DNA of 64,000 bases from Gammaproteobacteria bacterium (GTDB lineage: Bacteria > Pseudomonadota > Gammaproteobacteria > Steroidobacterales > Rariloculaceae), in NCBI GenBank assembly GCA_022826245.1, contig JAJDVG010000037.1:7470-71469 (forward strand), given 5' to 3'. The position numbers were made by a program, and so were the translations under genes. Positions 5,541-46,786 of the stretch are shown here, piece after piece; position 1 is the stretch's first letter; the number at the start of each line of letters is the position of its first letter. The notes under the pieces were generated by a model that was given only the letters and a program-made list of their open reading frames with translations, made no database searches and had not been told where the DNA came from.

Positions 5541-5570
5541 GAAGTATGCTTTGCATCACTTCATATATGA
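5541..5570 (+). promoter_or_regulatory. Palindromes upstream of vapB-1 (candidate antitoxin operator / -10 region)
   Basis: GAAGTATGC-ttt-GCATCACTTC imperfect inverted repeat followed by the perfect palindrome TCATATATGA, in an AT-rich stretch just 5' of the likely start at 5579. Confidence 0.3.
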
Positions 5571-5578
5571 TGACCACG

Positions 5579-5818
5579 ATGCCTCGAACCACAATCTCGA
5601 TGCCGCAAGACTTGGCTGACATGGCACAACGCGAGGCGCATCGCCGTGGCGTGAGTCTGTCGGCGGTGGTTCGCCAGGCGCTGGAGCAACATCTCTATCG
5701 ACACCGGGGGCGCAAGCTGCCGTGGCAGGGTCTGGTGGATCGCGACGGCCCTGCTGCGCGGGACCTCGATGCCGAACTGAATCGCGACTGGCCGACCGAC
5801 ATTGCTCGCGATCGCTGA
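5579..5818 (+). CDS. vapB: Ribbon-helix-helix (CopG/VapB-type) antitoxin
   Basis: MPRTTISMPQDLADMAQREAHRRGVSLSAVVRQALEQHL is a typical RHH N-terminus; the 3' end overlaps the PIN gene by 17 nt. The start could be as early as 5546. Confidence 0.75.
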   Translation: MPRTTISMPQDLADMAQREAHRRGVSLSAVVRQALEQHLYRHRGRKLPWQGLVDRDGPAARDLDAELNRDWPTDIARDR

Positions 5819-6209
5819 CAGCGGCCCGTTGGTAGCGTCGGTCAACGTTGCAGACCCCGATCATGCAGCGTGCGTCAAGGCCTTGTCAGGTGGCGGAATC
5901 GACATCGTCATACCGGCATTGTGCGTGGCCGAAGTCGCCTGGTTTCTTGGCAAACGCCACGGCGCGGACATCGAAGCCGTTTTTCTGGAAGGGTTGACGG
6001 ATTTCCCGGTGATTGCGCCTGACCCGGATGACTGGATGCGCATTGCAGGCCTCGTTCGCCGGTACGCGGACTTGCCGCTGGGCACCGTGGACGCGTCCGT
6101 GGCCGTGTTGGCGATGAGGCTCGGCACCGACCATATCATCACGCTCGACCGCCGGCACTTCACCGTCCTTCGCAATGCACAGGGCAAGCAATTCCAGCTT
6201 TCCCCCTGA
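5802..6209 (+). CDS. vapC: PIN-domain ribonuclease toxin VapC
   Basis: 135 aa with the conserved acidic residues in the expected places (LAIADSG, CVAEVAWF, TVDASV, TLDRRHF). Confidence 0.85.
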   Translation: MLAIADSGPLVASVNVADPDHAACVKALSGGGIDIVIPALCVAEVAWFLGKRHGADIEAVFLEGLTDFPVIAPDPDDWMRIAGLVRRYADLPLGTVDASVAVLAMRLGTDHIITLDRRHFTVLRNAQGKQFQLSP

Positions 6210-6397
6210 CAGCCTCCAGGACTGTGCCCGGGCATGTGTTTCGTCCGCTAACACCGGAAACTGTATCGAGTGGCGGCAAGACCCGCACAAGGAGAGGGAC
6301 GGCAGCACCAGGACGACCTGGCCGAGCACAAATTGGTGTCGTGCAGATAATGCTCTATGCTAGCTTTAGAGATCAGGACGACACTACGGAGTCATCG

Positions 6398-6859
6398 ATG
6401 CACCGCTCGAAATCCTTCTTCAAGACGGTAGCCCTCCTCGGCCTCGCAGTACCGGGCATCGTCATGGCGCACCATACCTGGGTCGTTGAATATGACCGCG
6501 AAGATGTCATCATCCTCGAAGGGACGGTCACCGAGGTCCAGTTGACGGCCCCGCACAGCCGGATTTTCTTCGCGGTGGAAGGGGTTGACGGAACCGCCAT
6601 CTGGGCGGGCGAATCCTGGCCGCTTGGGGCACTGTATCGGCGCGGTTTGACGAACAGCAGCCTGTCGGTGGGCGATGTGGTCCGGGTTACCGGCGAACGC
6701 GCCCGGGGCGGCCGCCTGGGCTTGCACCTCAGAAGCATCTACCGGCCCGCCGATGAATGGAGGGTCTGGATAGGACTTCGCCAGGACACGGGCGAAAATT
6801 CGTCCGCCGGGATCGGCGAAGGGGTGAATCAGGTTCAGCTTGAAGACGAGTCGGTCTAG
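6398..6859 (+). CDS. Secreted small protein, DUF6152-like (module copy 1)
   Basis: Signal peptide ends VMA|HH. Shares HHxxxxxYD...GTVTxV...PH...GDxVxVxG with ORFs 11760..12179 and the N-terminal part of 43198..44211. ATG at 6398 has ACGGAG upstream. Confidence 0.7.
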   Translation: MHRSKSFFKTVALLGLAVPGIVMAHHTWVVEYDREDVIILEGTVTEVQLTAPHSRIFFAVEGVDGTAIWAGESWPLGALYRRGLTNSSLSVGDVVRVTGERARGGRLGLHLRSIYRPADEWRVWIGLRQDTGENSSAGIGEGVNQVQLEDESV

Positions 6860-7572
6860 TGTTTGGTCAAATGGAATTCAGTCGCGTCGGCGGGTCCCGG
6901 AGGCTGATTCGGATGTGTGGAAAATCGCTCGGCCTCGCGCTTGGCCTGCTTGTGCTTCTGCCCGCGTGGGGCCATGAACCGCGACCCGCCCGAGACCAGA
7001 TGACGGATGTCTGGGTCCGGGCCGTCGGCGGCGTCGATCTCCCCGACATTTCAAATGTCACGCCTGCAGGCCAGGCTGTCATGGACGCTTACGATCATCT
7101 CACGGACGACATTCAGCGTTGCCTCATGGACTGGGGTCGTGTGAACACCGTCGCCCGGTTTCCCATGGAACTCATCGTCGCGGAGAACCAGGTCACCATC
7201 CTCTACGAATACAACCATACGGTGCGCCGTGTTTACCTCGATCAGACCGAATTTCCCGACGATTACCCTCCAAGCCTGGTCGGGTACTCCATCGGTCGTT
7301 GGGACGGCGACACGCTGGTGGTGGAAACGCGCAATCTGCTGCCGGGCTGGATCAACATGGAGGGCGTTGCGCCCTATTCGGGCGCAGCGGTGGCGACGGA
7401 ACGGTTCACGCTGGATCCTGAACAGCAAGTGCTGACGGTCGAACGCACGGTGACAGACCCGGATTACTACTCGGGCCCGGTCACATGGACAACCGTGTAC
7501 ACGCCGTCCGAGTTTCCGATCTATCCGTACGATTGCACTGTCGGTTCCTACGGGTCCAATCCTGAAGGCTGA
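6859..7572 (+). CDS. Secreted partner protein of unknown function (module copy 1)
   Basis: Signal-like LGLALGLLVLLPAWG. Motifs RCLMDWG, GYSIGRWDGDTLVVETR, ERFTL, VTDPDYYSGP and DCT are shared with 12237..13112 and the C-terminal part of 43198..44211. The GTG at 6859 overlaps the upstream stop; ATG 6913 is an alternative start. Confidence 0.7.
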   Translation: MFGQMEFSRVGGSRRLIRMCGKSLGLALGLLVLLPAWGHEPRPARDQMTDVWVRAVGGVDLPDISNVTPAGQAVMDAYDHLTDDIQRCLMDWGRVNTVARFPMELIVAENQVTILYEYNHTVRRVYLDQTEFPDDYPPSLVGYSIGRWDGDTLVVETRNLLPGWINMEGVAPYSGAAVATERFTLDPEQQVLTVERTVTDPDYYSGPVTWTTVYTPSEFPIYPYDCTVGSYGSNPEG

Positions 7573-7573
7573 G

Positions 7574-8770
7574 GTGCCCACGAACCGTTCCGGCGCCAGG
7601 ATTGCCGGCCTCGCCACGGCCGTGTTCGCAGCTTGCGTCATGCTGTCCGTTGCTCGGGCAGCGGAGTACTCGTGGGAGGTGGCCGGCAGCCATGTCGACG
7701 GCGATTCCGGCAGCGCCGTGCAAACCAACCATTCGGCGCTGCACGCGACCTGGTACCCGTCCGCGGTCGATGACGCGGTCGGTCCTTTTGAACTCGCGCC
7801 GTTTCTTAACCGCAGCAGCTATGTGACGGTCGTGGCGGGGCGCACGAAACTGCGCGAACCTTTGCTCTGGTCCTCGTTTGCAAGCGATCCCTTTTCCCGG
7901 CCGGCGGATCTGGTCGGCATGGGCATACCCGCCGAGGACGTGTTTCCGGTCTTCGGTGCGCCGTTTCCCGCGGAATCCGGTGTCGATTCATCGGAGTACG
8001 CCGTGGCCGGGCGCTACGTATGGCCGGACACCGGCTGGTACGCCGGCGCCCAGGTCCAGCAGAGCGGCGGCGATCTGCTGCCGGGTTTCTGGCTCGCACG
8101 ATCCACACTCGACCAGGACAGCAGCGAAGTGTTCGCCGGCAGGTATTTCGGTTCGCGAACCACGCTGGAACTGGCTCTCGGCTCGGGAGACGTGGACCAG
8201 GAATCGCGGACGACGCTGTCGTTGGGCATCGATCCCTTACCCGATTTCTCGCCCTTTCCCCCCGCAGTCGAACCCCTGGACTTCCGCATCGGAACGCGCG
8301 TCGAGTCGGAGAGCGCGCGGCTGTCGGTTCGCCACGCAGGCGATTTCGGCGACTCGGCCTTTGCGGTGTCGGCAAGCGTACGTCACAGCCGGTCGGAAAC
8401 ACGACTGTTCGGACTCTCGCCATTCGAGGATTTTCCTCCGGCAATCTCCATGGACCCGCCGGACCGGTTCTTCGTCGGCTCCGGCGCGCCATTGACGGCG
8501 ATCGGGTTTTCACAGACCGAACGTGAGCGTGAATTGCGTCTGTCGGGTACGTTGTTCCCGACCGACGCCCTGGGGGTACGCTTGGCGTTCTCAAGCTCGG
8601 ACCACGATACGTACGGAACCGGCGACACGGTCGACTTGTCGGCAACATGGTTTTTCGTTCGAAACGCGGCCCTGGAAATCGGGCTGAGCCGCACGGATTC
8701 CAGCCGCCCGTACGGTTCCGATTCGCGCGACATGGATTCGATCGCCGTGCGCCTGCTCGGCCGGTTCTGA
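7574..8770 (+). CDS. Outer-membrane porin-like beta-barrel (putative general porin family)
   Basis: Signal peptide, alternating beta-strand pattern, C-terminal ...AVRLLGRF ending in Phe. The GTG start lies 1 nt after the upstream stop. Confidence 0.6.
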   Translation: MPTNRSGARIAGLATAVFAACVMLSVARAAEYSWEVAGSHVDGDSGSAVQTNHSALHATWYPSAVDDAVGPFELAPFLNRSSYVTVVAGRTKLREPLLWSSFASDPFSRPADLVGMGIPAEDVFPVFGAPFPAESGVDSSEYAVAGRYVWPDTGWYAGAQVQQSGGDLLPGFWLARSTLDQDSSEVFAGRYFGSRTTLELALGSGDVDQESRTTLSLGIDPLPDFSPFPPAVEPLDFRIGTRVESESARLSVRHAGDFGDSAFAVSASVRHSRSETRLFGLSPFEDFPPAISMDPPDRFFVGSGAPLTAIGFSQTERERELRLSGTLFPTDALGVRLAFSSSDHDTYGTGDTVDLSATWFFVRNAALEIGLSRTDSSRPYGSDSRDMDSIAVRLLGRF

Positions 8771-9937: not shown

Positions 9938-10567
9938 TTAAGCGGCAGCCTTTGGCTGTTCCGCCGGCACCTGCCAGTCCTCCGGCATGCGCCTGAAATC
10001 GAAGAACGGTTCGGTATCGCCCTGGTCGATCGCTTCCTGAACCTGCCGGTAGAACTCGCCGCCGGCCTTCTTCGAGAAGGTGATCTCGACATCCTGCCGT
10101 TCATCGCCCGTGCGGGGACGTTGGCAGTATTCGGGAAACGTCGCTTCGCCGGCGTGCCCTGAGGCGTAGCCCTTGGCGAACATCTGGCGCAGTATTCCGA
10201 AACCGTCGTCCTGGACCAGCACTTCGCCGCGGGGATGTCCGCCCATCGATTTCATGTGATCGATAAAACGATCGAGGTCGTGGCAGTCGTAGGCAACGTG
10301 CTGGCAGGCATGATCGCCGTGTTTCTCGACGAAACTGGTCACCTGCGACGTCTCCGCCCTGTCGATGCCCTCGACGAGCGCGATTCCGAAGTCGCCGTAA
10401 TCGATGCACCAAATCTTCATGCTGCTGTTCGGATCATTGGGGCGTGCGTCGTCGATGCGCTTGATGAGCTTGCCGCCTTCCACTTCGATGTGAAACCAGG
10501 CCCACTTCTCGATGTTGCCGGCCGCGACCGCATAGGTCACATGGTCGATTTTTTTCAGGTATGACAT
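9938..10567 (-). CDS. VOC (glyoxalase/dioxygenase) superfamily protein, HPPD-like
   Basis: IDHVTYAV at the N-terminus, QHVAY, and a fold pattern like 4-hydroxyphenylpyruvate dioxygenase-related VOC proteins. Confidence 0.65.
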   Translation of the reverse strand: MSYLKKIDHVTYAVAAGNIEKWAWFHIEVEGGKLIKRIDDARPNDPNSSMKIWCIDYGDFGIALVEGIDRAETSQVTSFVEKHGDHACQHVAYDCHDLDRFIDHMKSMGGHPRGEVLVQDDGFGILRQMFAKGYASGHAGEATFPEYCQRPRTGDERQDVEITFSKKAGGEFYRQVQEAIDQGDTEPFFDFRRMPEDWQVPAEQPKAAA

Positions 10568-10707
10568 GTCGAATCTCCCGCGGAACTCGGCGATGGAACC
10601 AGTTTACTCCCGTGGGCTCGTCAAGAGTCTGCAAAATACTGCGTGCAATGCCTCATTCGCGCATGAACTGATACACTAAGCGCCAGTTATCGCAGGAATC
10701 GTGCAGC

Positions 10708-11142
10708 ATGGACAAATTCGACGCAGCAATTATCGATGCGCTTCAGGCGAACTCGCGCCAGAGCTGGGTGCGGCTAGGTGAACAGGTCAACCTCTCGCCC
10801 AGCGCCTGTCAACGACGCGTCGAGGCTCTGCAGAATGCCGGTGTGATCGAACGTTTCACATTGACCCTCAACGAGAAGGCGCTCGGACACAAGGTGAAGG
10901 CTTTCGTGGCGGTGACCGTCGATCGCCAGAACCCGAAGCTCGCCGAATCGTTCCGCCGTTGGGCGGTCGTTCATCGGCAGGTCAAGGCCTGCCATATGAT
11001 CTCCGGAATCAGCGACTATATGCTCGAAGTGGTGGCGACCGACCTGGAGGCCCTTGGCCACTTTCTCGAATCGGAACTCCTGGACCTCGAGTCGGTGAAA
11101 GACGCCTCTTCATCCATTGTGTTGGGGCGAATCAAATCATGA
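10708..11142 (+). CDS. Lrp/AsnC-family transcriptional regulator
   Basis: MDKFDAAIIDALQANSRQSWVRLGEQVNLSPSACQRRVEALQNAGVI plus a C-terminal RAM-like domain; divergent from the VOC gene. Confidence 0.9.
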   Translation: MDKFDAAIIDALQANSRQSWVRLGEQVNLSPSACQRRVEALQNAGVIERFTLTLNEKALGHKVKAFVAVTVDRQNPKLAESFRRWAVVHRQVKACHMISGISDYMLEVVATDLEALGHFLESELLDLESVKDASSSIVLGRIKS

Positions 11143-11166
11143 AAACCACGGCCGAAACGGCACCGG

Positions 11167-11196
11167 TTGAAAACGATTTTCCCGCGTGAATATAAT
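11167..11196 (+). promoter_or_regulatory. Near-consensus sigma70 promoter for the H-NS-like gene
   Basis: TTGAAA (11167-11172), 18-nt spacer, TATAAT (11191-11196); 43 nt upstream of the ATG at 11240. Confidence 0.5.
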
Positions 11197-11239
11197 TTGA
11201 ATCGCTCCTGAAAACCCCACGACGAGGAAATCCCCGATC

Positions 11240-11662
11240 ATGTCAGCTCTCCAGGAACTCGCGAGGTCGCGCACGAAGGCCAAGGCCGCTGCAAAAAAAC
11301 TTGATGTTGCAGCGCTCAAGAAACTCATCGAATCCTTGACTATCGCGTTGCAAGCAGAAGAAAAACGCCTGAAAGACAAGGCAGAGCGCGAAAAACAAAA
11401 CAAGATAAAGAAAATCAATCAATTGTTGGCCGAAAGCGGTCTTTCCGTCGCTGACCTGCAGAAAGCCCCTGCGGGCCGTGGGCGCCGCAAGACAAGGACG
11501 CGGCGACGCGTCACCAAGCGCCGCAAGGTGCCGCCGAAGTACCGCCTGGTCGTGGCCGGCGTGGAGCATCTCTGGAGCGGCCGCGGGCGCGCGCCAAGGG
11601 TATTTGCCGATCACTTCGCCGCGGGCAACAGCCGCGAGAGTGTCGAGATTCCCAAGGATTGA
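11240..11662 (+). CDS. H-NS-family nucleoid-associated protein
   Basis: Lys/Glu-rich coiled-coil N-terminus, basic linker, C-terminal KYRLVVAGVEHLWSGRGRAPRVF matching the H-NS TWxGxGRxP DNA-binding motif; the gene is AT-richer than its surroundings. Confidence 0.8.
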   Translation: MSALQELARSRTKAKAAAKKLDVAALKKLIESLTIALQAEEKRLKDKAEREKQNKIKKINQLLAESGLSVADLQKAPAGRGRRKTRTRRRVTKRRKVPPKYRLVVAGVEHLWSGRGRAPRVFADHFAAGNSRESVEIPKD

Positions 11663-11759
11663 TTCCCCGCACTCCAGAGCCCGGCATTAACGGCTGCACG
11701 GGCCGTCGGCTCTGAATTCAGGGCCAATGTGACGTAGCGATTCCCGCCACCGCGTGGCG

Positions 11760-12179
11760 CTATTGCCCTCTGCTCGACCCGGCAAGCATCCGCTGGCCCG
11801 TTGCGGTCATTATGATCGTCTCCGCGTTCGCGAGCGGGCTGCCGTCTCTCGCATGACTGCCCTCAACGGTAATCTCGTCTCCGGGTTGCAGGGAATCGCG
11901 TTTCCAGCCCAGGCGCAGCAATGAATTCGGACCCCCCATCTCGAGCGCCCAGTTCACGACTTCGCCGCTCTCTTCATCGGCCACGTCGATATAGATGAAG
12001 ATGTGCGGATTGGTCCACTCGACATCGGTGACCGTTCCCGTCAAGTGAACGGGTTTCGATTCATCGTATTGCGCCGGAAAGGAATGGTGAGCGGATGCCG
12101 GCAGCGCGGCCGCGAGCGTCGCAAGCGGCAACGCGATCGCGACGGCGCGGATGGTCGTGTTTGCTGTGAGCGTCTTCAT
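11760..12179 (-). CDS. Secreted small protein, DUF6152-like (module copy 2)
   Basis: Signal peptide ends ASA|HHSF; HHSFPAQYD...LTGTVTDVEWTNPHIFIYIDV...PGDEITVEG. Confidence 0.75.
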   Translation of the reverse strand: MKTLTANTTIRAVAIALPLATLAAALPASAHHSFPAQYDESKPVHLTGTVTDVEWTNPHIFIYIDVADEESGEVVNWALEMGGPNSLLRLGWKRDSLQPGDEITVEGSHARDGSPLANAETIIMTATGQRMLAGSSRGQ

Positions 12180-12236
12180 TTTTCGTCCTTTGGATTTGTT
12201 GCGCCGACGGTATCGATCGCACCGACAGCCGAAAAA

Positions 12237-13112
12237 CTAGAACGGAAGTTTCATTCGCTCGACGAACTGTTCGTTTTCCAGACAGATTTCATCGATCAGC
12301 TCTGCATCGATGACGATACGCTGCCGCAGCGTAACCGACCAGGGTTCGGTATAGGCTCTTGGATCATCAACGGTAATTCGAATATCAAGGTGGCCGAAGT
12401 CCGGACGGCTGATCTCTTCCCTGACCCTGGCCGCCTCGGTAACCACGCTGCCGTTCCAGTCGATCCAGGTGTCGTCGCGTATGCCGATCGTATCGATGAC
12501 GAGCGTATCGCCCGACCATTGCGCGGATGAAAACCCCTGCCACGAGGGCGTCGGCTCGTCCGGCAATTCGCGGCCGTCGACAAATACCTGCCGGTATCCG
12601 GCGTTCATCTCGTTCAAAACGACCAGCAGTTCCGGCGTGTGCACGAACTTCAACATGTGCGGAAGCCCGTAGGCGCGAACGAAATTGTCGGGCAGACAAC
12701 GAATGTGCGGATCCTCTATGGCCATGTTGGCGGTGCGTTCCGCGACGATCGGCAACTGCCACTCCTGGTAGGGCAAGCCGTCCGGCATGTCGGCGCCCAT
12801 ATCCGCCATGAAGCGGGAGGAACCGAGGTTGAAACCGTCGCTGGGCGACTCCTCGCCTTCGGGCGTGTTGTCGGATATCCAGATCCCGGAAAGATCGGGT
12901 CTGCCGTCGGGCATCCGCGGCGCCGGCGCCGTCATGTCGACCGAGCCGTCGGCCCTGCGCGGTACGTTCGCCGTCGGGTAGCCTATCCACTGGGCGGTGG
13001 AAGGTGTCGCGAGCAGCAACGTCCCGACCACGATCGCAGAAAGAGAAACGAACCGTGAACCATTTCGACTTCTGCAAAGCAGCACGGCTCGGAACGGGCG
13101 GGAGTAAAGCAT
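12237..13112 (-). CDS. Secreted partner protein of unknown function (module copy 2)
   Basis: Signal-like N-terminus; motifs IRCLPDNF, QGFSSAQWSGDTLVIDTIG, VDDPRAYTEPW and ICLE shared with the other two copies. Confidence 0.7.
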   Translation of the reverse strand: MLYSRPFRAVLLCRSRNGSRFVSLSAIVVGTLLLATPSTAQWIGYPTANVPRRADGSVDMTAPAPRMPDGRPDLSGIWISDNTPEGEESPSDGFNLGSSRFMADMGADMPDGLPYQEWQLPIVAERTANMAIEDPHIRCLPDNFVRAYGLPHMLKFVHTPELLVVLNEMNAGYRQVFVDGRELPDEPTPSWQGFSSAQWSGDTLVIDTIGIRDDTWIDWNGSVVTEAARVREEISRPDFGHLDIRITVDDPRAYTEPWSVTLRQRIVIDAELIDEICLENEQFVERMKLPF

Positions 13113-13274
13113 ATGCGCTCCCCTTTTCGGCTCGCCAGGGCGGTGAAAACGGCTAAAAGCGACTATCTACCGAGAGTAGATTGCCATCCTTGGGGGGTCA
13201 AGCGGAGTTCGGTCGGATCGGGCTGAGGCGCATCGGGCCGCTATGATATGAACCGGAAAGCGGAGGTATCTGCT

Positions 13275-14366
13275 ATGGATACGAGAACAAACCGGATCCT
13301 CCTGCCGTTGCTGACGGCCGTACTTGCGGCCTGGGCGGCCGCAGCCTTTGCACAGCACGGCAATGGCAATCCGGACATGGCGCCGACCAACGACCTGCCG
13401 AATCCCTTCTCCGACAGGGCGGTCATGCCGCTGCCCGACGGCCGAAGCTGGGGGTCGACCGCCGGCGTCGATGCCGCGAAGGGCCGGGACGACATCTGGG
13501 CCATCGACCGCTGCGGCAGCAACGGCTGCGTGGGATCGGACGCCGACCCCCTCATGCACTACGACGCGAACGGCAACCTCATCGGCCAGATGGGAGCGGA
13601 TCTCTTCGCCTTTCCGCACGGCATTCACGTCGACGCCGAGGACAACGTGTGGGTCACCGATCCGCTGCCGCCCGACGGCCGCGGCGCCGGCGGCGATGTC
13701 GGGCAACAGGTCACGAAGCTCAGTCCGGATGGCGAGATTCTGCTTCAGCTCGGTACGCTCAAGGTGACCGGCGACGGCCCCAACGAGTTCAGTTCCCCGT
13801 CCGATGTCGTCGTCGGCGACGATGGCGACATCTTCGTCGCCGACGGCCACGGCGAGGGCACCAACGAGCGCATCATGAAGTTCGACCGCAGCGGCAACTT
13901 CATCATGGCGTGGGGCCGGCCGGGCAACGGCCCGTGCGGAGCGGGCGAGTTCTCGAGCCTGCACGCGCTCGCGATCGATTCGCGGGGACGTCTCTTCATC
14001 GGCGATCGCGACAACAACCGGATCCAGATCTACGACCAGGACGGCAATTACCTCGATTGCTGGTACCAGTTCAGCCGCCCGAGCGGGATATACATCGACG
14101 CCGACGACAGGCTGTTCGTCGCCGATTCCGAGTCCCGAGACGGCGCCGACGACGGCATGGACCTTGCCCACCCCGGATGGCAGCGCGGAATCCGGATCGG
14201 CAGCGCCCGCGACGGCATCGTCAGGTATTTCATCCCCGATCCCGACCCGCGGGGCGGCAGCAGCGCGGCCGAGGGCGTCGCGGCCGTCCGGGGCGGCGCC
14301 GTCGTCTACGGCGCCGAAGTGGGACCGCGGGCCTTCGTCCGCTACGACCGGCGCCGATCGCCTTGA
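13275..14366 (+). CDS. Secreted NHL-repeat beta-propeller, peptidyl-alpha-hydroxyglycine alpha-amidating lyase (PAL)-like
   Basis: FAFPHGIHVDAEDNVWVTD, FSSPSDVVVGDDGDIFVADGHG..RIMKFDRSGNF and FSSLHALAIDSRGRLFIGDRDNNRIQIYD resemble PAL/NHL blades. Signal peptide present; GGAGG lies 8 nt before the ATG. Confidence 0.7.
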   Translation: MDTRTNRILLPLLTAVLAAWAAAAFAQHGNGNPDMAPTNDLPNPFSDRAVMPLPDGRSWGSTAGVDAAKGRDDIWAIDRCGSNGCVGSDADPLMHYDANGNLIGQMGADLFAFPHGIHVDAEDNVWVTDPLPPDGRGAGGDVGQQVTKLSPDGEILLQLGTLKVTGDGPNEFSSPSDVVVGDDGDIFVADGHGEGTNERIMKFDRSGNFIMAWGRPGNGPCGAGEFSSLHALAIDSRGRLFIGDRDNNRIQIYDQDGNYLDCWYQFSRPSGIYIDADDRLFVADSESRDGADDGMDLAHPGWQRGIRIGSARDGIVRYFIPDPDPRGGSSAAEGVAAVRGGAVVYGAEVGPRAFVRYDRRRSP

Positions 14367-14473
14367 CCAACAAGGCCGATACGCTTGCTCGGACCGCGAC
14401 GGCGCTTGCGCTCCGCGGCATCGGGCTTACGGTGTAGACTTGCGGCATGAATCTTCTTTCGGGAGAAACGAAC

Positions 14474-14989
14474 ATGAAACGGCTGGTACTCGGCCTCGTG
14501 ACCATGCTGCTCGCGGCGCAACTGCAGGCACAGGCGCTCGGACCCGGCGACACTCCACCGAACTGGACCGGCCGGGACTTTTCCGGGCAGATGCTCGAAT
14601 ATCCCGAGGTTCTCGACGGCAATCCGGCCGTCATGGTGTTCTGGGCGACCTGGTGCGGCTATTGCCGGGCCTTCATGCCCTACCTCAAGGACATTTCCGC
14701 CGACTATGCCGCGCAGGGCGTCAGCATCGTCGCGGTCAATGCCAAGGAGGACGGCTCGGGCGATCCCGTTGCCTACGTCCGCGGCCTCGGCTTCGATCCC
14801 GTCGCGGTCGCCGACGGCGATGCCATCGCCGACGCCTGGGGCATCCGCTTCATCCCGGGCCTGCTGATCGTGAACGGCGACGGGACGGTCGCCTGGCAGC
14901 GGGACTGGACCGACCTGCCGGCCGGCCGCACGGTCGCGGAGCTATGGGACGGCCAGGTGCGCGAGCAGCTCGATCGTCTATTGCTCTGA
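14474..14989 (+). CDS. TlpA-like periplasmic thioredoxin-fold protein
   Basis: Signal peptide plus the FWATWCGYCR active site. Confidence 0.8.
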   Translation: MKRLVLGLVTMLLAAQLQAQALGPGDTPPNWTGRDFSGQMLEYPEVLDGNPAVMVFWATWCGYCRAFMPYLKDISADYAAQGVSIVAVNAKEDGSGDPVAYVRGLGFDPVAVADGDAIADAWGIRFIPGLLIVNGDGTVAWQRDWTDLPAGRTVAELWDGQVREQLDRLLL

Positions 14990-39736: not shown

Positions 39737-40109
39737 TATCTGTTCCCCCCGAGGTGTTGCGGCTTCGATGCAGCGCCCCTCCATGCCGCCCGAAGCTTCG
39801 TTGTAATCCTGCGCTGTAGCGCGGTTCATGTTGTTGTATCGAGCATACGCTCTTGCCCACGCCAGTCAAGTTAGCGGCCGGCCTGCCACCTGCGGGGTGT
39901 CGATAGCCATGTTCCGGAGCCTGCCGATGAGTACAATCTGCGAATCCCCGAACGAACTGCCGTTACGAAGAAACACCAACTGAAGTGCGTTCGCGGCCTG
40001 GGACTGCGTTCTGACTTCGGCGCGCGGGGGAGCGCGGCGATGGCGCCGCGTACCAGGCAACATTTGTAAACCGCGAACCGGCTCACATGCCGGTTTGCAG
40101 GAGATGCCG

Positions 40110-41465
40110 ATGACCCGACTCGCAACCGCCTTCGCAAGCGCTTTGCTGTGCCTTGCGGCCTTGCAGGGATCGACCTCGCCGTCTGTCTATCCGACCGGTA
40201 CGACAATCTACGATCCGGAGCGTGCCTGGAACGGCTACACCGTGCTCTCGCCGCTTTCGGCCGGGGCCGCCGTCGTCATCGACATGAACGGCAACGTCGT
40301 CAAGCGCTGGGACGATTACAACAACGCGGCCGGGGGGCCTGCGCGGGTACTGCCGGGAGGCGGGATCGTCGCAGCCTCAGGCGCACGACCGCCGCACCAG
40401 GAAGCGCTCGAACTCGTGCAACGCGATTTCTACGGCGAGACGGTCTGGAGTTTCGGCCGGAACGAGCAGGTCGAAACACACGACGGCGAGACGGTCTGGT
40501 CGTCACGCCAGCACCATGACTGGCAGCGCGCCGACTTTCCGGCCGGCTACTACTCGCCCGAAGCCGAACCTGCAACGACGGGCGCCAACACACTCCTGCT
40601 GACCCACACCAACCGCGTCGAGCCCAACGTGTCCGACGTGCTGCTCGAGGACGACCGCATCATCGAGGTGTCGCCCGACGGCGAGATCGTCTGGGAATGG
40701 ATCGCGAGCGAACACATCGACGAACTGGGTTTCGACGCGGCGGCGCGTGCCACGATCGCCACGGCACCGGGCTTCAGCGCGGCGCGCGGCTCCTTCGACT
40801 GGCTGCACATCAACTCCGTGACCTACGTCGGACCCAACCGCTGGTTCGATGCGGGCGATCAACGGTTCGCGCCCGACAACGTGATCGTCAGCGGCCGTGA
40901 GGGCAACCTGATCGCCGTGATCGCGCGCGACGGATCGATCGTCTGGCGCCTCGGCCCTGAATTCGACGAATCCGAGGAACTGCTCGCCATCGGCCAGATC
41001 ATCGGCCAGCACAAGCCCCATATCATCCCGAAGGGTCTGCCCGGGGCCGGCAATGTGCTCGTCTTCGACAACGGCGGTGCGGCGGGCTACGGCGTTGCGA
41101 GCCCGGTTGCTCCGGACGGCGACAACATCTATGCACGGACGTCGTCGCGCGTGCTCGAAATCGATCCGCTGACGCTCGAACTCGTCTGGTCCTACGCGTC
41201 AGCCAGCTTCCTGAGTTGGAACATCAGCAGCGCGCAGCGGCTCGCCAACGGCAATACGCTCATCACCGAAGGCGCGAGCGGACGCCTCTTTGAGGTGACG
41301 AGCGACGGAGACATCGTATGGGAGTACATGTATCCGCACGATGAAGGGGGGCGCAACGACGTCTATCGGGGCTACCGCCTGCCCTACGGGTGGATCCCGC
41401 AACTCGACCGGCCGGAAGAACTCTCCGTGACGCCACCGCCGCCCGGTGAGTTCCGGGTACCGTAG
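40110..41465 (+). CDS. Secreted arylsulfotransferase (ASST)-family beta-propeller protein
   Basis: Signal peptide; FDWLHINSV, NVLVFDNG and repeated IVWEW/IVWEY blades typical of aryl-sulfate sulfotransferase-like proteins. CAGGAG lies before the ATG at 40110. Confidence 0.65.
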   Translation: MTRLATAFASALLCLAALQGSTSPSVYPTGTTIYDPERAWNGYTVLSPLSAGAAVVIDMNGNVVKRWDDYNNAAGGPARVLPGGGIVAASGARPPHQEALELVQRDFYGETVWSFGRNEQVETHDGETVWSSRQHHDWQRADFPAGYYSPEAEPATTGANTLLLTHTNRVEPNVSDVLLEDDRIIEVSPDGEIVWEWIASEHIDELGFDAAARATIATAPGFSAARGSFDWLHINSVTYVGPNRWFDAGDQRFAPDNVIVSGREGNLIAVIARDGSIVWRLGPEFDESEELLAIGQIIGQHKPHIIPKGLPGAGNVLVFDNGGAAGYGVASPVAPDGDNIYARTSSRVLEIDPLTLELVWSYASASFLSWNISSAQRLANGNTLITEGASGRLFEVTSDGDIVWEYMYPHDEGGRNDVYRGYRLPYGWIPQLDRPEELSVTPPPPGEFRVP

Positions 41466-41550
41466 CTTGCCGTTCGTTTGCGCTCGGGGGCGGGTGAACG
41501 ATGGTAGCGGAAACGAGGTCCGACCGCCTGTTCGTTAGTATTGGAGTGAC

Positions 41551-43164
41551 GTGAACTACGATCTCAGGACTTTCCGGGGCGATCTCTTCGGCGGTCTCAC
41601 CTCAACCGTCGTCGCGCTGCCCGTGGCACTGGCGTTCGGAATCGCGTCGGGCCTCGGGGCAGCCGCGGGCCTGTACGGCGCGATCGCTGTCGGCTTCTTC
41701 GCCTCGGCCTTCGGCGGCACCCGCTCGCAGATATCAGGTCCCACACCATCGATGACCGTCGCCATGGCGGTCATCGTCACGTCCCACGCGACGACGTTGA
41801 CCGAAGCCCTGACGGTGGTCGTCATGGGCGGCTTGCTCCAGGTGCTGCTCGGTCTCTTCAGGTTCGGCCGCTACATCGTCTATACGCCCCATGTCGTCAT
41901 CTCCGGGTTCATGTCGGGCATCGGCATCATCATCATGCTCATCCAGGTGTTGCCGTTCATCGGGGCGCCTACGTCTCCCGAGGGGCCCATGGGCGCAGTT
42001 CGCGACCTGCCGGCGGCGCTCGGCAACATCAACGCGAGCGCCGTGGCGATCGCCCTCGTGACGCTCGGGATCGGTATCGTCTGGCCGGCCCGGTTGTCGC
42101 GCCTGCTGCCGGCGCCGATCGTAGGCCTGATCGCGGGCACGCTGCTCGGCGTGCTGTGGCTCACCGATGCGCCGGTCATCGGCCAGATCCCGGCCGGACT
42201 GCCCGCGCTCCGGTTCGAGTTGCCCTCGTTCGCCTTCCTGATCGCCGCGATCCATCCTGCGATCATTCTTGCCCTGCTCGGCTCCGTCGACAGTCTGCTG
42301 ACTTCGCTGATCGCCGATTCGCTGACCGGAACGCGCCACAATCCGGACCGGGAACTCGTCGGGCAGGGGCTCGGCAACATGGTCGCGGGACTGTTCGGAG
42401 GGCTGCCCGGCGCGGGCGCCACGATGGGCACGGTGACCAATATCCGGGCCGGCGGCCGGACCCAGGTATCGGGGATCCTCAGGGCCGTCCTGCTGCTCGC
42501 CCTGCTGCTCGGACTCGGCCGGCTCGTCGAACCGATTCCCCATGCCGCACTTGCGGGGATCCTCATGAAAATCGGCTGGGACGTCATCGACTGGCGGATG
42601 CTCCGCCGCACGCACCGAATTCAGGCGCACTACATGTTCATCATGGTGACGACGCTGTCTCTGACCGTGTTCGTGGATCTCGTCACGGCCGTTGCCATCG
42701 GGCTCATCGCCGCGGGACTTGCCCATGCGCGGCAACTCGAGGGTCTGGAACTCGACAGCGTGGTCTCGGTACCGATGCTCGATCAGACGTTCTTTGCCGG
42801 CATGGAGCGGATGGCGAACGACGACCCGCTCGCGGCGCGAGTGGGCCTGGTGGCGCTGCGCGGAACCTTCACCGTGGCGTCGTCACACAAACTGGTCACG
42901 GTCATGAGCGTGGACATTCGCGATCACGATGTCGTCATCTTCGATTTCTCGGGAGCAACCCACCTGGACGACAGCGCGGCCATGGTCATAGAGCAACTCA
43001 TCGACGTAGCGCGCAGGGCGGACACCGAGATCATCATCATCGGGCTGTCGGGCACCGTGGGCCATACGCTCGAAACGCTCAACGTCCTGCGCAAGGTGCC
43101 GACGGAACGCATCGTCGACACGCTCGATGAGGCGCGGGAGATCGCCGCGGATCTGCTTGATTGA
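41551..43164 (+). CDS. SulP-family anion (sulfate/bicarbonate) transporter with C-terminal STAS domain
   Basis: DLFGGLTSTVVALPVALAFG, multiple TM helices, and a STAS-like C-terminus (VVIFDFSGATHLDDSA). Confidence 0.9.
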   Translation: MNYDLRTFRGDLFGGLTSTVVALPVALAFGIASGLGAAAGLYGAIAVGFFASAFGGTRSQISGPTPSMTVAMAVIVTSHATTLTEALTVVVMGGLLQVLLGLFRFGRYIVYTPHVVISGFMSGIGIIIMLIQVLPFIGAPTSPEGPMGAVRDLPAALGNINASAVAIALVTLGIGIVWPARLSRLLPAPIVGLIAGTLLGVLWLTDAPVIGQIPAGLPALRFELPSFAFLIAAIHPAIILALLGSVDSLLTSLIADSLTGTRHNPDRELVGQGLGNMVAGLFGGLPGAGATMGTVTNIRAGGRTQVSGILRAVLLLALLLGLGRLVEPIPHAALAGILMKIGWDVIDWRMLRRTHRIQAHYMFIMVTTLSLTVFVDLVTAVAIGLIAAGLAHARQLEGLELDSVVSVPMLDQTFFAGMERMANDDPLAARVGLVALRGTFTVASSHKLVTVMSVDIRDHDVVIFDFSGATHLDDSAAMVIEQLIDVARRADTEIIIIGLSGTVGHTLETLNVLRKVPTERIVDTLDEAREIAADLLD

Positions 43165-43197: not shown

Positions 43198-44211
43198 CTA
43201 TTGCCTGTCGGCGGGAAGCTCGCAGTTGAACGGCATGACCTGCTGGCCGGGAATCCAGGTCCAACGGACTTCCATGGGTACGGGTTCGGTGAAGTTCACC
43301 GGATCGACTACTTCTCCCTCCCAGACAAGATCCGTACCGTCCTCGCTCAGGATGAACCGTTCGTTGATGACCACATCCTCGCTTTGCGGCGTGCCGATGT
43401 CGTCGACGTAGCGCCAATCGATGTCCCGGGTTTCCACGACAAGCGTATTGCCCTCCCAACGACCGACGGAGCGCCCCATCCGCGGCTGCGACGGCTCCCC
43501 GTCGCCATCGAGATGGATCACCCGTTCGCCGTCCCACTCCTCCAGCCGCATGAGGATGGCCCCGCCCCGGTCTTCGAAGGACACGGGATACGGGTTGGCC
43601 ATGACGGTCGGCATCCCCGGCGGAATGCACTCGAGCGCCGGGTCCTCCTCCGGATCCCACAGGGCCTGAACGGCCCGCCCGGCCTCGGTCAGCGGATAGC
43701 CGGAACCGCCGTCCATGGACAGGGCATTCCTGAACGTAACCGGCACCCAGACCCGGAAGATGTCCGCACGCAAGGACGCGTCGGCAGTGTCGGCCTCGCG
43801 CTGCGCGTTCTCCGTGATGTTGTAGCGGCGGTCGGTCTCCGCCTGCAGGGCCACTTCCCGACCGTCGGGCAGGACGATCCCGGTCGCGAACATGGCCGTC
43901 AGTCCGTTGCGTCCCATGCTCCCGGAAACGGACACGCGGTCGCCTACAGCCAACAGATCCCTGGAGACGCCGAGGCGCACGACCGTATTGACCGAACCGA
44001 ACTCGATCTCCCACTCCTCGTCTTGCCCGCCTTCGCCGCTGCGGCTCAAGAGCAGGCGCACGTGGGGATTTCGCCAGAAGACGTCGGTGATCTCGCCCTC
44101 TATCGTCCCCTGGTCGTTGGGATCGTAGCGCCCGATCTCCGCGTGATGCGCCGTTGCAGCGATGGCCGCCAGGGAAGCCGCCAGAAGCAAGCCGATTTGA
44201 AGGCCGCGCAT
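43198..44211 (-). CDS. Secreted fusion protein: DUF6152-like N-domain plus partner-family C-domain (module copy 3)
   Basis: Signal peptide ATA|HH. N-terminal part: HHAEIGRYD...IEGEITDVFWRNPHVRLLL...VGDRVSVSG. C-terminal part: LECIPPGM, GRSVGRWEGNTLVVETRD, NERFIL, VVDPVNFTEP and NCE. Confidence 0.7.
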   Translation of the reverse strand: MRGLQIGLLLAASLAAIAATAHHAEIGRYDPNDQGTIEGEITDVFWRNPHVRLLLSRSGEGGQDEEWEIEFGSVNTVVRLGVSRDLLAVGDRVSVSGSMGRNGLTAMFATGIVLPDGREVALQAETDRRYNITENAQREADTADASLRADIFRVWVPVTFRNALSMDGGSGYPLTEAGRAVQALWDPEEDPALECIPPGMPTVMANPYPVSFEDRGGAILMRLEEWDGERVIHLDGDGEPSQPRMGRSVGRWEGNTLVVETRDIDWRYVDDIGTPQSEDVVINERFILSEDGTDLVWEGEVVDPVNFTEPVPMEVRWTWIPGQQVMPFNCELPADRQ

Positions 44212-44223
44212 GTTCGCTCCCGG

Positions 44224-44640
44224 CTACAGGCGAACGATCCGGCGGGAATTCATCGGCGCCAGAACGAACGATTCGAGCGAATCCGCGGTCAGTGGCAGAA
44301 AATCGCGTTGAGCGGCGAAGTAGAGCACGTTCTCGCCGAACATCCTGAGTTCGTACGCCCGCTGCCGGTCGATGAGGCCCGCAACGGGAGGCCGGACATC
44401 GGCGGTGCAAATGCCTTTCAATGACCGGTACCACAACGCGTCGGTACGCCCGCTGAACTCCACGACCGTTGCTCCCCGGACCCCGAGTTTCCCGGCAAAG
44501 GCCATGGATTCGGAGTGTTTGGGGTCCGCGAGTACGACCCAGCCGTTCAGGTCGTTCGTGCGCGCAGCCAATGTAGCCGGCACGGCGCCGAATGCCACCG
44601 AAAGGCCCGCGGATTTAATCAGGTCACGCCGAGTGAGCAT
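44224..44640 (-). CDS. Small Tat-signal protein of unknown function
   Basis: MLTRRDLIKSAGLSVAFGAVPATLAA twin-arginine motif; ends 12 nt upstream of the fusion gene. Confidence 0.55.
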   Translation of the reverse strand: MLTRRDLIKSAGLSVAFGAVPATLAARTNDLNGWVVLADPKHSESMAFAGKLGVRGATVVEFSGRTDALWYRSLKGICTADVRPPVAGLIDRQRAYELRMFGENVLYFAAQRDFLPLTADSLESFVLAPMNSRRIVRL

Positions 44641-46424: not shown

Positions 46425-46786
46425 AACGGAGCCTTCTACTGCTTGTCCTTCTCGCCGCCTCCCAGGGTGCGCTTGCGCAGACCACGCCTTCGGCCGAGAA
46501 CGGCAGGACCGTATTCGCGAAGTGGTGTACACCCTGTCATGGCGCCGACATCGTCACGGGAGAACTCTGGGGGCGCGCCCCGGCTCCGGGCACCGCGGCG
46601 CTGCAGCTCAAGTACAGGGGCGAGCTGCCGGCAGTACTCGAGGAACGAACCGACCTCACTGGGGAGTTCATCGAGACCGTTGTTCGGGGCGGCCTGTTCG
46701 GAATGCCGATCACCAGGAAGACCGAAATCAGCGACTCCGAACTGGAAGACATCATCGCCTATCTGACGAAGGGCGACGCGGGCTGA
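46421..46786 (+). CDS. Class I c-type cytochrome (flavocytochrome c small subunit-like)
   Basis: Sec signal peptide, CTPCH heme motif, distal Met (GLFGMP). The ATG overlaps the flavoprotein stop (ATGA). Confidence 0.8.
   Translation: MKRSLLLLVLLAASQGALAQTTPSAENGRTVFAKWCTPCHGADIVTGELWGRAPAPGTAALQLKYRGELPAVLEERTDLTGEFIETVVRGGLFGMPITRKTEISDSELEDIIAYLTKGDAG

Follow-up and report, generated by a model that had tools for sequence, protein, structure and literature searches.

Three old, diverged copies of an exported module pairing DUF6152, a family with a predicted N-terminal His-His end, with a predicted calycin-like barrel

It has been shown that a histidine exposed by signal-peptide cleavage binds metal whatever the fold, with His1 and His18 serving in DUF4198 and His1, His28 and His32 in DUF6702, and the "signal strapping" approach has found exported N-terminal-histidine metalloproteins of this kind, specifically DUF4198, DUF6702 and Ang-1/2 (PMC12537917). 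A separate system, SOQ1, combines thioredoxin-like and NHL parts and acts on the plastid lipocalin LCNP. Among the folds considered below, the OB-fold is able to carry a metal site, as exemplified by CusF, and the calycins include ZinT/YodA, a metal-binding lipocalin-like protein. No literature was found on DUF6152 (PF19649, IPR046150) or on a histidine brace in an OB-fold, and DUF6152 is absent from the signal strapping paper and its supplements (PMC12537917).

The window (the whole 64 kb stretch of DNA analysed here) contains three old, diverged copies of an exported two-part module that consists of a DUF6152 protein and a barrel partner. The relevant features are the following:

6398..6859 (+): DUF6152 A; predicted cleavage between IVMA and HHTW; APH replaces NPH
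6859..7572 (+): partner A, 237 aa from the GTG at 6859; abuts or overlaps DUF6152 A
7574..8770 (+): porin-like outer-membrane protein, one base downstream of pair A
11760..12179 (-): DUF6152 B, 139 aa, exported protein with a predicted OB-fold; predicted cleavage between PASA and HHSF
12003..12011 (-): codons of Asn57-Pro58-His59 in DUF6152 B; Pro58 and His59 invariant, Asn57 nearly so
12084..12089 (-): codons of His31-His32 in DUF6152 B; predicted mature residues 1 and 2, invariant
12180..12236 (-): spacer of 57 nt from partner B to DUF6152 B, with an AAGGA ribosome-binding site inside
12237..13112 (-): partner B, 291 aa; Sec-type signal peptide with cleavage between ATPSTA and QW, followed by an N-terminal extension that contains the conserved strand DG.PDLSG.W, then by helices capping an 8-stranded calycin-like barrel (predicted layout)
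12282..12284 (-): codon of Cys277 in partner B, motif E-I-C-L-E, the second invariant cysteine
12696..12698 (-): codon of Cys139 in partner B, motif R-C-L-P, the first invariant cysteine
13248..14366 (+): gene for an NHL-repeat beta-propeller, divergently oriented to pair B across a 135-nt intergenic region
43198..44211 (-): copy C, a single fused ORF of 337 aa

In pair A, the DUF6152 gene precedes the partner gene, whereas the order is reversed in pair B; in copy C, the signal peptide is followed by the HH-bearing DUF6152 domain, a linker and the partner domain, which makes up the C-terminal half. A sequence-only reading of this DNA had placed the two genes of pair B 57 nt apart, in the order opposite to that of the first copy, and both ORFs and the exact spacer were found as described. 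No terminator-like sites were reported on the coding strand of this spacer, and partner B and DUF6152 B are probably co-transcribed. The ORF of DUF6152 A is open from position 6224, the ATG at 6398 being the likely start, and partner A has an alternative start at Met19 (position 6913). An ORF antisense to copy C (43201..44424, plus strand), which had been chosen by length alone, was rejected as a high-GC artefact given its GC3 of 0.68, compared to 0.82 for the true gene. The product of the ORF at 7574..8770 shows weak matches to Porin_7 and Omp33-36, both below the curated cut-offs, and a tie of this gene to the module is unproven.

The partner domains of the three copies are clearly related to each other in pairwise BLASTP comparisons (E = 1e-12 for B and A, 1e-8 for B and C, 4e-12 for A and C), and the relationship proposed in the sequence-only reading, which non-significant values would have contradicted, thus holds. 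The same reading considered the copies to be divergent paralogs of one pair, in agreement with the low identity among the three (26–28%, with an overall range of 26–35%) and the higher identity, up to 54%, to copies in other phyla. Recent duplication within this genome is ruled out by the same comparison, each copy being nearer to copies in other phyla than to the other two; old, diverged copies fit specialised variants of one mechanism. Arrays of up to ~5 copies occur in other genomes. The base composition of the module (0.60–0.63) is slightly lower than the window mean of 0.65, and such a small offset gives no clear sign of recent horizontal transfer.

All three small proteins or domains score above the 27-bit gathering threshold of Pfam DUF6152 (PF19649), at 107.2 bits for copy B (E = 4.6e-31), 72.7 for copy C and 55.1 for copy A; profile and structure-sequence scans of Pfam, NCBIfam, PHROGs and PDB returned nothing beyond PF19649 and a sub-threshold Pfam match to TOBE. 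The domain comprises ~110 residues and adopts an OB-fold in the AF2 model of fused copy C (pLDDT 85.7, pTM 0.82, with residues 17–23, i.e., the HH segment, below pLDDT 50); its Foldseek neighbours are the OB-folds of SSB, PriB and the N-terminal domain of LysRS. In all 70 complete DUF6152 sequences, HH preceded by A, G or S comes directly after the hydrophobic leader (a prediction at the level of sequence), and the spacing from HH to the (N/A/S)PH motif is fixed at 22–25 residues. After Met1, the sole invariant residues of the alignment are H31, H32, P58 and H59; conservation at position -1 (Ala30 of copy B) reaches at least 90%, and D39, W77 and E80 are conserved as well. There is no conserved Met, and the mature protein has no Cys. 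The HH dipeptide is predicted to form the first two mature residues in every complete homolog, which is the hallmark of N-terminal-histidine metal sites, and the His-His end of DUF6152 is probably a metal-binding site, for which His59 is a candidate third ligand.

Like DUF4198, DUF6702 and Ang-1/2, DUF6152 is a bacterial domain of unknown function with a histidine right after the signal peptide and a second conserved histidine ~17–30 residues further on, the histidines of the mature DUF6152 being His1, His2 and His29 (PMC12537917). The differences are that those families are beta-sandwich or Ig-like, whereas DUF6152 is predicted to be an OB-fold; that position 2 of DUF6152 is also invariantly His; and that DUF6152 is tied or fused to a second domain. 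The histidine is conserved in 65–79% of the members of those families compared to 100% in DUF6152, which thus has the most absolute N-terminal-His signature found here, with a second His at position 2. The combination of a predicted free N-terminal His with a distal invariant His is shared with the histidine-brace copper proteins (LPMOs, CopC and the CuB site of PmoB), and D39, W77 and E80 near the DUF6152 histidines recall sites of the CopC and YcnI type. Nevertheless, unlike the histidine-brace proteins, DUF6152 has no polysaccharide-binding surface, CopD partner or nearby copper genes, and its fold differs. Membership in the LPMO (AA9–AA17) or CopC families, which are characterised by an immunoglobulin- or cupredoxin-like beta-sandwich, was rejected given that the Foldseek neighbours of DUF6152 are OB-folds. 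With CusF and the BOF/YgiW family, DUF6152 shares the predicted architecture of a small periplasmic OB-fold; CusF and YgiW are absent from its top 50 Foldseek matches. The CusF site employs His/Met/Met/Trp for Cu(I), whereas DUF6152 has neither a conserved Met nor a cus operon context, and a CusF-type metallochaperone is ruled out by the lack of a conserved Met and of recurrent RND/Cus neighbours.

The partner domain is widespread. A search with partner B yielded 5,866 matches. Clustering at 50% identity leaves more than 14,000 representatives of the domain, which come from Acidobacteriota, Gamma- and Alphaproteobacteria, and soil and marine metagenomes; yet, no family model, solved structure or publication was found for it. 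Searches of Pfam, NCBIfam, PHROGs, PDB sequences and PDB profiles with the partner gave no match, and a comparison of 68 diverse partners with Pfam gave no recurrent match even at E <= 1, and no described lipocalin, FABP or lipocalin-like family. Every motif listed in the sequence-only reading recurs in the alignment of the three partner domains of the window, namely RCLPDNF, RCLMDWG or ECIPPGM near the first Cys, G.S.G.W.G(D/N)TLV(V/I).T, V.DP..(Y/F)(S/T)(G/E)P, and EICLE, YDCTV or FNCEL around the C-terminal Cys. That reading also had the proteins exported and the family defined by two conserved cysteines; signal peptides are indeed present, the family is large, and both Cys are invariant in a 68-sequence alignment with identity to copy B down to 21%, where they account for two of only four invariant columns. 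In a broader set, both Cys are found in 143 of 167 diverse partner domains, the others being truncated or fragmentary, and 174 of 207 partner domains (84%) contain exactly two Cys, the conserved ones. Because the Cys and His columns never vary, covariation is uninformative. The conserved polar core consists of W78, E168, R174, S195, W199, D218, E232, R233 and D250 (copy B numbering).

The partner domain (~200 residues) is predicted to be a calycin-like beta-barrel, in which a helical cap sits on eight strands. In the AF2 model of partner B (pLDDT 88.3), three short helices precede the strands, and one Cys ends the helix before the barrel, whereas the other is located ~10 residues past the last strand. 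The two Cys of fused copy C are C195 and C330. The closest PDB structures found with Foldseek are CRABP2, FABP, CRBP and streptavidin; these matches are weak, with a best E of 4.6e-3, TM of 0.38–0.57 normalised by target length, and no structural match at E <= 1e-3. The predicted 8-stranded antiparallel barrel after short helices recalls the calycins (iLBPs, lipocalins and avidins), and the Cys pair, with one member in the N-terminal cap and one in the C-terminal tail, is reminiscent of the disulfide of lipocalins. However, similarity to the calycins is weak (TM ~0.55 at the best E), there is no sequence relation to the Pfam lipocalin families, and the partner differs from them in its unusually large conserved charged set, its N-terminal extension and its DUF6152 companion.

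A structural disulfide joining the two conserved Cys, as suggested in the sequence-only reading, is plausible; the invariance of both Cys, the 174 of 207 domains with exactly these two and the signal peptides bear on it indirectly. Alternatively, the Cys could form a functional pair, redox-active or metal-binding. The partner would then be an enzyme that depends on thiols, or a lipocalin-like protein under redox regulation, on which thioredoxin-like and NHL proteins act in some loci as SOQ1 does on LCNP. We consider this highly improbable. It is compatible with the presence of the Cys in two of the few invariant columns and with the genes that adjoin pair B in the window and in close relatives, which encode a secreted CxxC redoxin and the NHL propeller; SOQ1 is among the PDB matches of the NHL gene and acts on a lipocalin, and NHL propellers recur beside fused modules. 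As in the SOQ1/LCNP system, thioredoxin-like and NHL genes in the window accompany a lipocalin-like protein with conserved cysteines. However, the redoxin–NHL pairing is confined to the close relatives of the window and one acidobacterial locus with a redoxin-like ORF, so that a SOQ1-like coupling at the level of the family was ruled out as local to this lineage. The NHL gene is a recurrent but non-universal neighbour, found in 14 of the 80 loci of the fused type and in 2 of the 80 seeded on the partner. Furthermore, periplasmic proteins whose only cysteines are one conserved pair typically carry a disulfide made by DsbA, which speaks against this alternative.

The two parts of the module are linked in several ways. 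Of 80 loci seeded on the partner, 36 contain a DUF6152 gene, which almost always abuts a partner gene, in both orders; conversely, in the DUF6152-seeded loci on sphingomonad plasmids, a partner lies directly beside 10 of the 12 DUF6152 genes. Fusions are common and occur in hundreds of lineages. The divergence of DUF6152 correlates with that of the partner, with a Spearman coefficient of 0.55 (0.00 +/- 0.03 after permutation), a value that is partly inflated by the shared species phylogeny and the split between the fused and unfused classes. These results show that DUF6152 and the partner are inherited and diversify as one unit. The pairing is facultative: about half of the sampled partner loci lack a DUF6152 gene in the flanks fetched (up to 6 kb), which indicates that the partner can do without the putative metal domain. 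The same polar core is kept in fused, paired and lone partners. In ~355-aa proteins with an N-terminal partner domain, the C-terminal domain is DUF3471 or OmpA instead of DUF6152, and the fusions with OmpA point to a periplasmic location. In the fused representatives, DUF6152 comes first in 30 of 30, and this order leaves HH at the processed N-terminus; the reverse order, partner then DUF6152, would have suggested that a free N-terminus does not matter, and no such fusion was found.

We infer, tentatively and at a little short of even likelihood, that the module consists of a metal site built on an N-terminal histidine and of a barrel, clamped by a disulfide, that binds a ligand and on which the metal site docks, and that it has diversified into ligand-specific paralogs. 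Under this scheme, signal-peptide cleavage would free the amino group and the imidazole of His1 of DUF6152, and these groups, probably together with His2 and the invariant (N)PH histidine, would chelate a transition-metal ion in a site of the histidine-brace type. The barrel, clamped by the C139–C277 disulfide, would bind a small molecule via its conserved polar residues, and docking of the metal domain on the barrel would allow metal and ligand to meet. The many paralogs could then have different ligand specificities and serve separate periplasmic catabolic or uptake loci. The partner might be able to act alone as well, given that lone partners retain the same conserved core.

The genomic neighbourhoods bear on two other explanations. 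The 148 immediate neighbours of the module spread over 110 Pfam families. Catabolic genes near the module are diverse and include MBL-fold proteins, SGL, NHL and YncE propellers, Amidohydro_2, PrpF, tannase, and an FAD oxidase with cytochrome c. Neither copper, nickel or zinc homeostasis genes nor metal regulators, P-type ATPases, Cus/Cop/Znu/Nik, RND or multicopper oxidases recur among these 148 neighbours, and this census leaves a metal-homeostasis gene context unsupported. It appears unlikely that the module is a pair for metal capture and trafficking, in which DUF6152 would sequester or chaperone metal in the periplasm (similar to DUF4198, DUF6702, CopC or CusF) and the partner would be a docking adaptor that hands the metal to outer- or inner-membrane transporters. 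The His-His signature itself would suit such a pair, and so would the precedents, which are non-enzymatic metal binders, one of them encoded beside TonB receptors (PMC12537917). TonB-dependent receptor or porin-like genes are indeed found beside some copies (7574..8770 in the window, C. atlanticum and Sphingobium), and in sphingomonads a pair of genes for small DUF6644 membrane proteins adjoins or directly precedes DUF6152. Nevertheless, three paralogs in the window and the arrays elsewhere are hard to square with a handful of metals, and the polar core of the partner is equally conserved without DUF6152.

The diversity of the catabolic neighbours could also fit a metal-free module, i.e., a protein that binds or shuttles, in the periplasm, hydrophobic or aromatic substrates taken in via outer-membrane receptors; HH and NPH would then contact the ligand, take part in catalysis or dock the domains. 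The calycin-like barrel is similar to carriers of fatty acids and retinoids, and the expansion of paralogs would suit many different substrates. We nevertheless regard this possibility as rather doubtful. Histidine is among the residues that are rarest after signal peptides (PMC12537917), yet positions +1 and +2 are invariantly His in every complete homolog here, and the fusion order always keeps the N-terminus free. Both the invariant HH and the preserved free N-terminus are difficult to account for if the amino terminus plays no part of its own.

If the metal site docked on the barrel is real, the OB-fold would be a new fold among the N-terminal-histidine metalloproteins, a recently opened class, and the module would be the first obligate two-domain architecture in that class; a large set of hypothetical proteins from bacteria that abound in soil and sediment would also gain a role. 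The metal hypothesis is cheap to test given the availability of cultured strains and plasmid-borne copies, in Croceibacterium atlanticum 26DY36, Sphingobium sp. TomTYG65, Novosphingobium humi and Novosphingobium sp. PP1Y.

A bolder proposal, which we consider very unlikely, is that the module is an unrecognised platform for periplasmic metallo-oxidases or peroxygenases. A Cu (or Ni) centre of the histidine-brace type on the OB-fold would be placed at the opening of a calycin barrel with a small organic substrate inside, and each of dozens of paralogs would be adapted to a substrate of its own. In some loci the oxidised product would be processed by PAL-like NHL lyases, lactonase-type propellers or MBL hydrolases, so that the module would mirror, for small molecules in bacteria, the PHM/PAL logic of peptide amidation. 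A PCMH-like FAD oxidase with cytochrome c is encoded beside copy C and in locus L088, but in 0 of 80 metagenomic fused-type loci, and was rejected as a family-level link. A residue-level comparison of the NHL gene product with a PAL sequence, taken as a lead, suggests only partial conservation of the catalytic and Zn residues. The NHL neighbour matches the PAL core (3fvz) with E = 1.5e-21 over ~170 residues.

The pair of DUF6152 and its partner domain is real, ancient and widespread, and no description of it was found in the searchable literature. Tblastn with both proteins of copy B, the pair under study, against the window yielded three modules (copies A, B and C), and the small protein of all three matches Pfam DUF6152 (PF19649; E = 4.6e-31, 8.2e-15 and 2.6e-20).

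Modules in the window
6398..6859, then 6859..7572 (+): copy A, DUF6152 followed by partner
11760..12179 (-): DUF6152 of copy B, small protein of 139 aa
12180..12236: 57-nt spacer between the two genes of copy B, with an AAGGA ribosome-binding site
12237..13112 (-): partner of copy B, 291 aa
43198..44211 (-): copy C, a single fused ORF, small domain N-terminal and partner domain C-terminal

The two ORFs of copy B and the gap between them are exactly as the sequence-only reading had them, in the reverse order to copy A; no terminator-like site was reported on the coding strand of the spacer. The partner motifs quoted in that reading all appear in the three-way alignment of the partner domains. 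The BLASTP comparison that it named as a possible refutation leaves the relationship standing, since the similarity is significant (pairwise E = 1e-12, 1e-8 and 4e-12). A 407-aa ORF antisense to copy C (43201..44424, +) was rejected as a high-GC artefact, with GC3 of 0.68 vs 0.82 in the real gene; in this region, homologs and a Pfam domain were found for the minus-strand product alone.

DUF6152 sequences were compared across the window, genomic loci and fused representatives. Of this diverse set of 74, 4 are fragments, and all 70 complete ones share one layout: a hydrophobic leader with A, G or S as its last residue, followed by HH, 22-25 residues and (N/A/S)PH. In an alignment of 34 sequences (29-84% identity), H31, H32, P58 and H59 (numbered along the copy B precursor) are the sole invariant residues after Met1, and conservation is 90% or more at A30 (the -1 cleavage position), D39, N57, W77 and E80. 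From this pattern and conservation, the mature protein is predicted to start with HH as its residues 1 and 2; it is Cys-free in 32 of 34 sequences. Sequence and profile searches retrieved no related solved structure; in the AF2 model of the fused paralog (pLDDT 85.7, pTM 0.82), the DUF6152 half is an OB-fold, with SSB, PriB and the N-terminal domain of LysRS as Foldseek neighbours.

Where signal-peptide cleavage leaves a His at the N-terminus, its amino group and imidazole chelate metal in any fold; this principle recently led to the discovery of DUF4198 (Ni; His1 and His18) and DUF6702 (His1, His28 and His32), in a study that also reports His to be among the least likely residues after a signal peptide (PMC12537917). 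DUF6152 is absent from that study and its supplements. Its His signature is stricter than those of the two families (100% conserved vs 65-79%), has a second His at position 2 and also includes an invariant His at mature position 29. Because of this precedent and the stricter signature, we propose a metal site in DUF6152. The pair can be classed as a putative metalloprotein of the N-terminal-His kind, built on a new scaffold and accompanied by a partner domain that has no name.

The partner has no match in Pfam, NCBIfam or PHROGs, even with 68 diverse members scanned at E <= 1, and no PDB relative by sequence or profile search. In the 90% cluster database, 5,866 of the 8,000 scored candidates matched it, and among clusters at 50% identity the family has 14,333 representatives with E <= 1e-3 (7,605 of them with E <= 1e-10), named 'hypothetical protein' wherever a source supplies a name. 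From the N-terminus, the AF2 model of partner B (pLDDT 88.3, pTM 0.81) has the leader, an extension containing a single conserved strand, three short helices and finally eight strands. The nearest folds are calycin-type barrels, namely CRABP2, FABP, CRBP, SAHS and streptavidin (best E 4.6e-3; TM of the best matches ~0.5-0.57, normalised by target length). Since the Foldseek matches are calycin-type, yet none reaches E <= 1e-3, the modelled domain is described as calycin-like and assigned to no described calycin family.

In 68 aligned sequences, whose identity to copy B goes as low as 21%, the only invariant partner columns are C139, G193, D250 and C277. The two cysteines singled out in the sequence-only reading are thus invariant in this set; both are present in 143 of 167 domains, the rest being truncated or fragmentary, and they are the sole cysteines in 174 of 207. 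In the partner B model, Cys139 is located at the end of a helix preceding the barrel and Cys277 ~10 residues past the last strand. The simplest reading is a putative clamp disulfide, Cys139-Cys277; the rival reading is a functional pair of cysteines. Other partner architectures include tandem partner-partner proteins (~480-530 aa) and fusions to DUF3471 or to an OmpA peptidoglycan-binding domain (e.g., P0242, P0246, P0283 and P0275 among protein representatives P0241-P0390).

The copies, previously described as divergent paralogs, represent old subfamilies. They are 26-28% identical to each other in the partner half and 31-35% in the DUF6152 half, vs 54% over the aligned domain between copy B and a Bryobacterales copy (63% in the best tblastn segment for copy B) and 51% between copy C and other fused proteins. 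Recent duplication is rejected because the copies are closer to outside relatives than to each other. The gene order and neighbours of copy B are conserved in relatives at 85% identity, and the order alone at 73%. Module GC is only a little lower than the window mean. Within the window, GC is lowest at 10001..12000 (0.585 vs 0.649), where an AsnC-type regulator (10708..11142), an H-NS-like gene (11240..11662) and DUF6152 B are located; synteny of this stretch is conserved in an 85%-identical relative (locus L089).

In a partner-seeded sample of 80 genomic loci, mostly from Acidobacteriota with some Gammaproteobacteria, a DUF6152 gene is present in 36, nearly always directly adjoining a partner gene; the pair set comprises 23 DUF6152-then-partner and 9 partner-then-DUF6152 arrangements, plus fusions. 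In the DUF6152-seeded sample of sphingomonad plasmid loci, a partner lies directly beside 10 of 12 DUF6152 genes. Fusion is widespread: of the 120 clusters listed, most are ~320-360 aa long, at 49-91% identity to copy C. Fused genes also occur in arrays, with 174 genes across 78 metagenomic loci. DUF6152 is N-terminal in 30 of 30 fused representatives, as expected if the processed N-terminus must stay free, and no protein that begins with the partner has DUF6152 at its C-terminus, where DUF3471 or OmpA is present instead. The two halves co-diverge (Spearman 0.55 for pairwise identities in 66 pairs, partly due to shared species phylogeny and the fused/unfused class split; 500 permutations gave a mean of 0.00, SD 0.03 and maximum 0.13). 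Pairing is facultative: 44 of the 80 partner-seeded loci have no DUF6152 gene in the flanks fetched (up to 6 kb), and 15 core positions are conserved alike in lone, paired and fused partners. Because lone partners keep the same core, we infer that the partner has an autonomous function and that, in a large share of cases, DUF6152 is an accessory to it.

We hypothesize that the N-terminal-histidine metal site would be carried on the OB-fold of DUF6152 and docked on the calycin-like barrel of the partner, which would be clamped by the disulfide and would bind a small molecule. The genomic context is heterogeneous, with the 148 genes immediately flanking DUF6152-containing modules falling into 110 Pfam families, most often MBL-fold (7), SGL, NHL and YncE propellers and RidA (6 each), and PrpF, Amidohydro_2, Thioredoxin-like and Cytochrome c (4 each). 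Genes for copper, nickel or zinc homeostasis do not recur among these neighbours; this absence, together with the many paralogs and catabolic neighbourhoods, weakly favours ligand-specific processing or capture over bulk metal trafficking. The module may instead be a metal sequesterase or a metal-free carrier. Cultured hosts exist, allowing direct tests.

Genes adjoining the modules
7574..8770 (+): exported protein of 398 aa, weakly similar to Porin_7 and Omp33-36 (both sub-threshold)
13248..14366 (+): exported NHL beta-propeller, divergent from pair B
14447..14989 (+): exported CxxC redoxin, after the NHL gene
44224..44640 (-): 138-aa protein with a Tat (twin-arginine) leader, MLTRRDLIK..., and no Pfam match, 12 nt upstream of copy C
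44802..46424 (+): FAD_binding_4 oxidase, divergent from the Tat-leader gene
~46316..46786 (+): CxxCH cytochrome c, with the oxidase a p-cresol-methylhydroxylase (PCMH)-like flavocytochrome

Of 80 fused-type loci, 14 contain NHL propellers homologous to the window gene (29-49% identity), 8 of them within 300 nt of a module gene and 7 of those on the same strand. The best long PDB match of the window protein is the PAL lyase core of PAM (3fvz, E 1.5e-21), and it also matches SOQ1; the succession of NHL and redoxin genes recalls the Trx-like plus NHL proteins SOQ1 and NHLRC2. This gene pair is kept beside module B in close relatives. The PCMH-like oxidase and cytochrome c flank copy C and a relative in locus L088, where they (48% and 35% identical) come after a fused DUF6152 gene; they were found in 0 of 80 metagenomic fused-type loci.

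TonB-dependent receptors or porin-like genes lie beside some module copies. The start of the porin-like gene one base past the stop codon of partner A suggests a DUF6152-partner-outer-membrane protein operon at copy A. In 5 of 6 distinct sphingomonad loci (plasmids, L171-L175), a tandem pair of genes encoding small DUF6644 membrane proteins is found along with the module. The pair also turns up sporadically elsewhere, in one acidobacterial and one marine locus (L084:3146-4269 and L136:4475-5675); a DUF6152 gene directly follows it in two cases, and the window has no DUF6644 genes.

In Bryobacterales, Vicinamibacterales and Terriglobia (L005-L084), partner genes often form arrays of 2-5, near which members of further families expanded in acidobacteria, DUF3738/TIGR03435-type genes (23 loci), OMP_b-brl_4 (10) and MacB/FtsX permeases (5), are found, an adjacency that may merely reflect the abundance of these families. 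An arylsulfotransferase-like beta-propeller and a SulP/STAS sulfate permease (40095..43164, +) immediately adjoin copy C, and in the Sphingobium locus L172 the module lies beside TauD, a sulfonate-binding protein and a luciferase-like monooxygenase; these neighbours hint at a candidate organosulfur context. Just upstream of copy A, two short overlapping ORFs (5546..6209, +) were recognized by eye as a putative toxin-antitoxin pair, the first product (90 aa) being ribbon-helix-helix-like and the second (135 aa) PIN/VapC-like.
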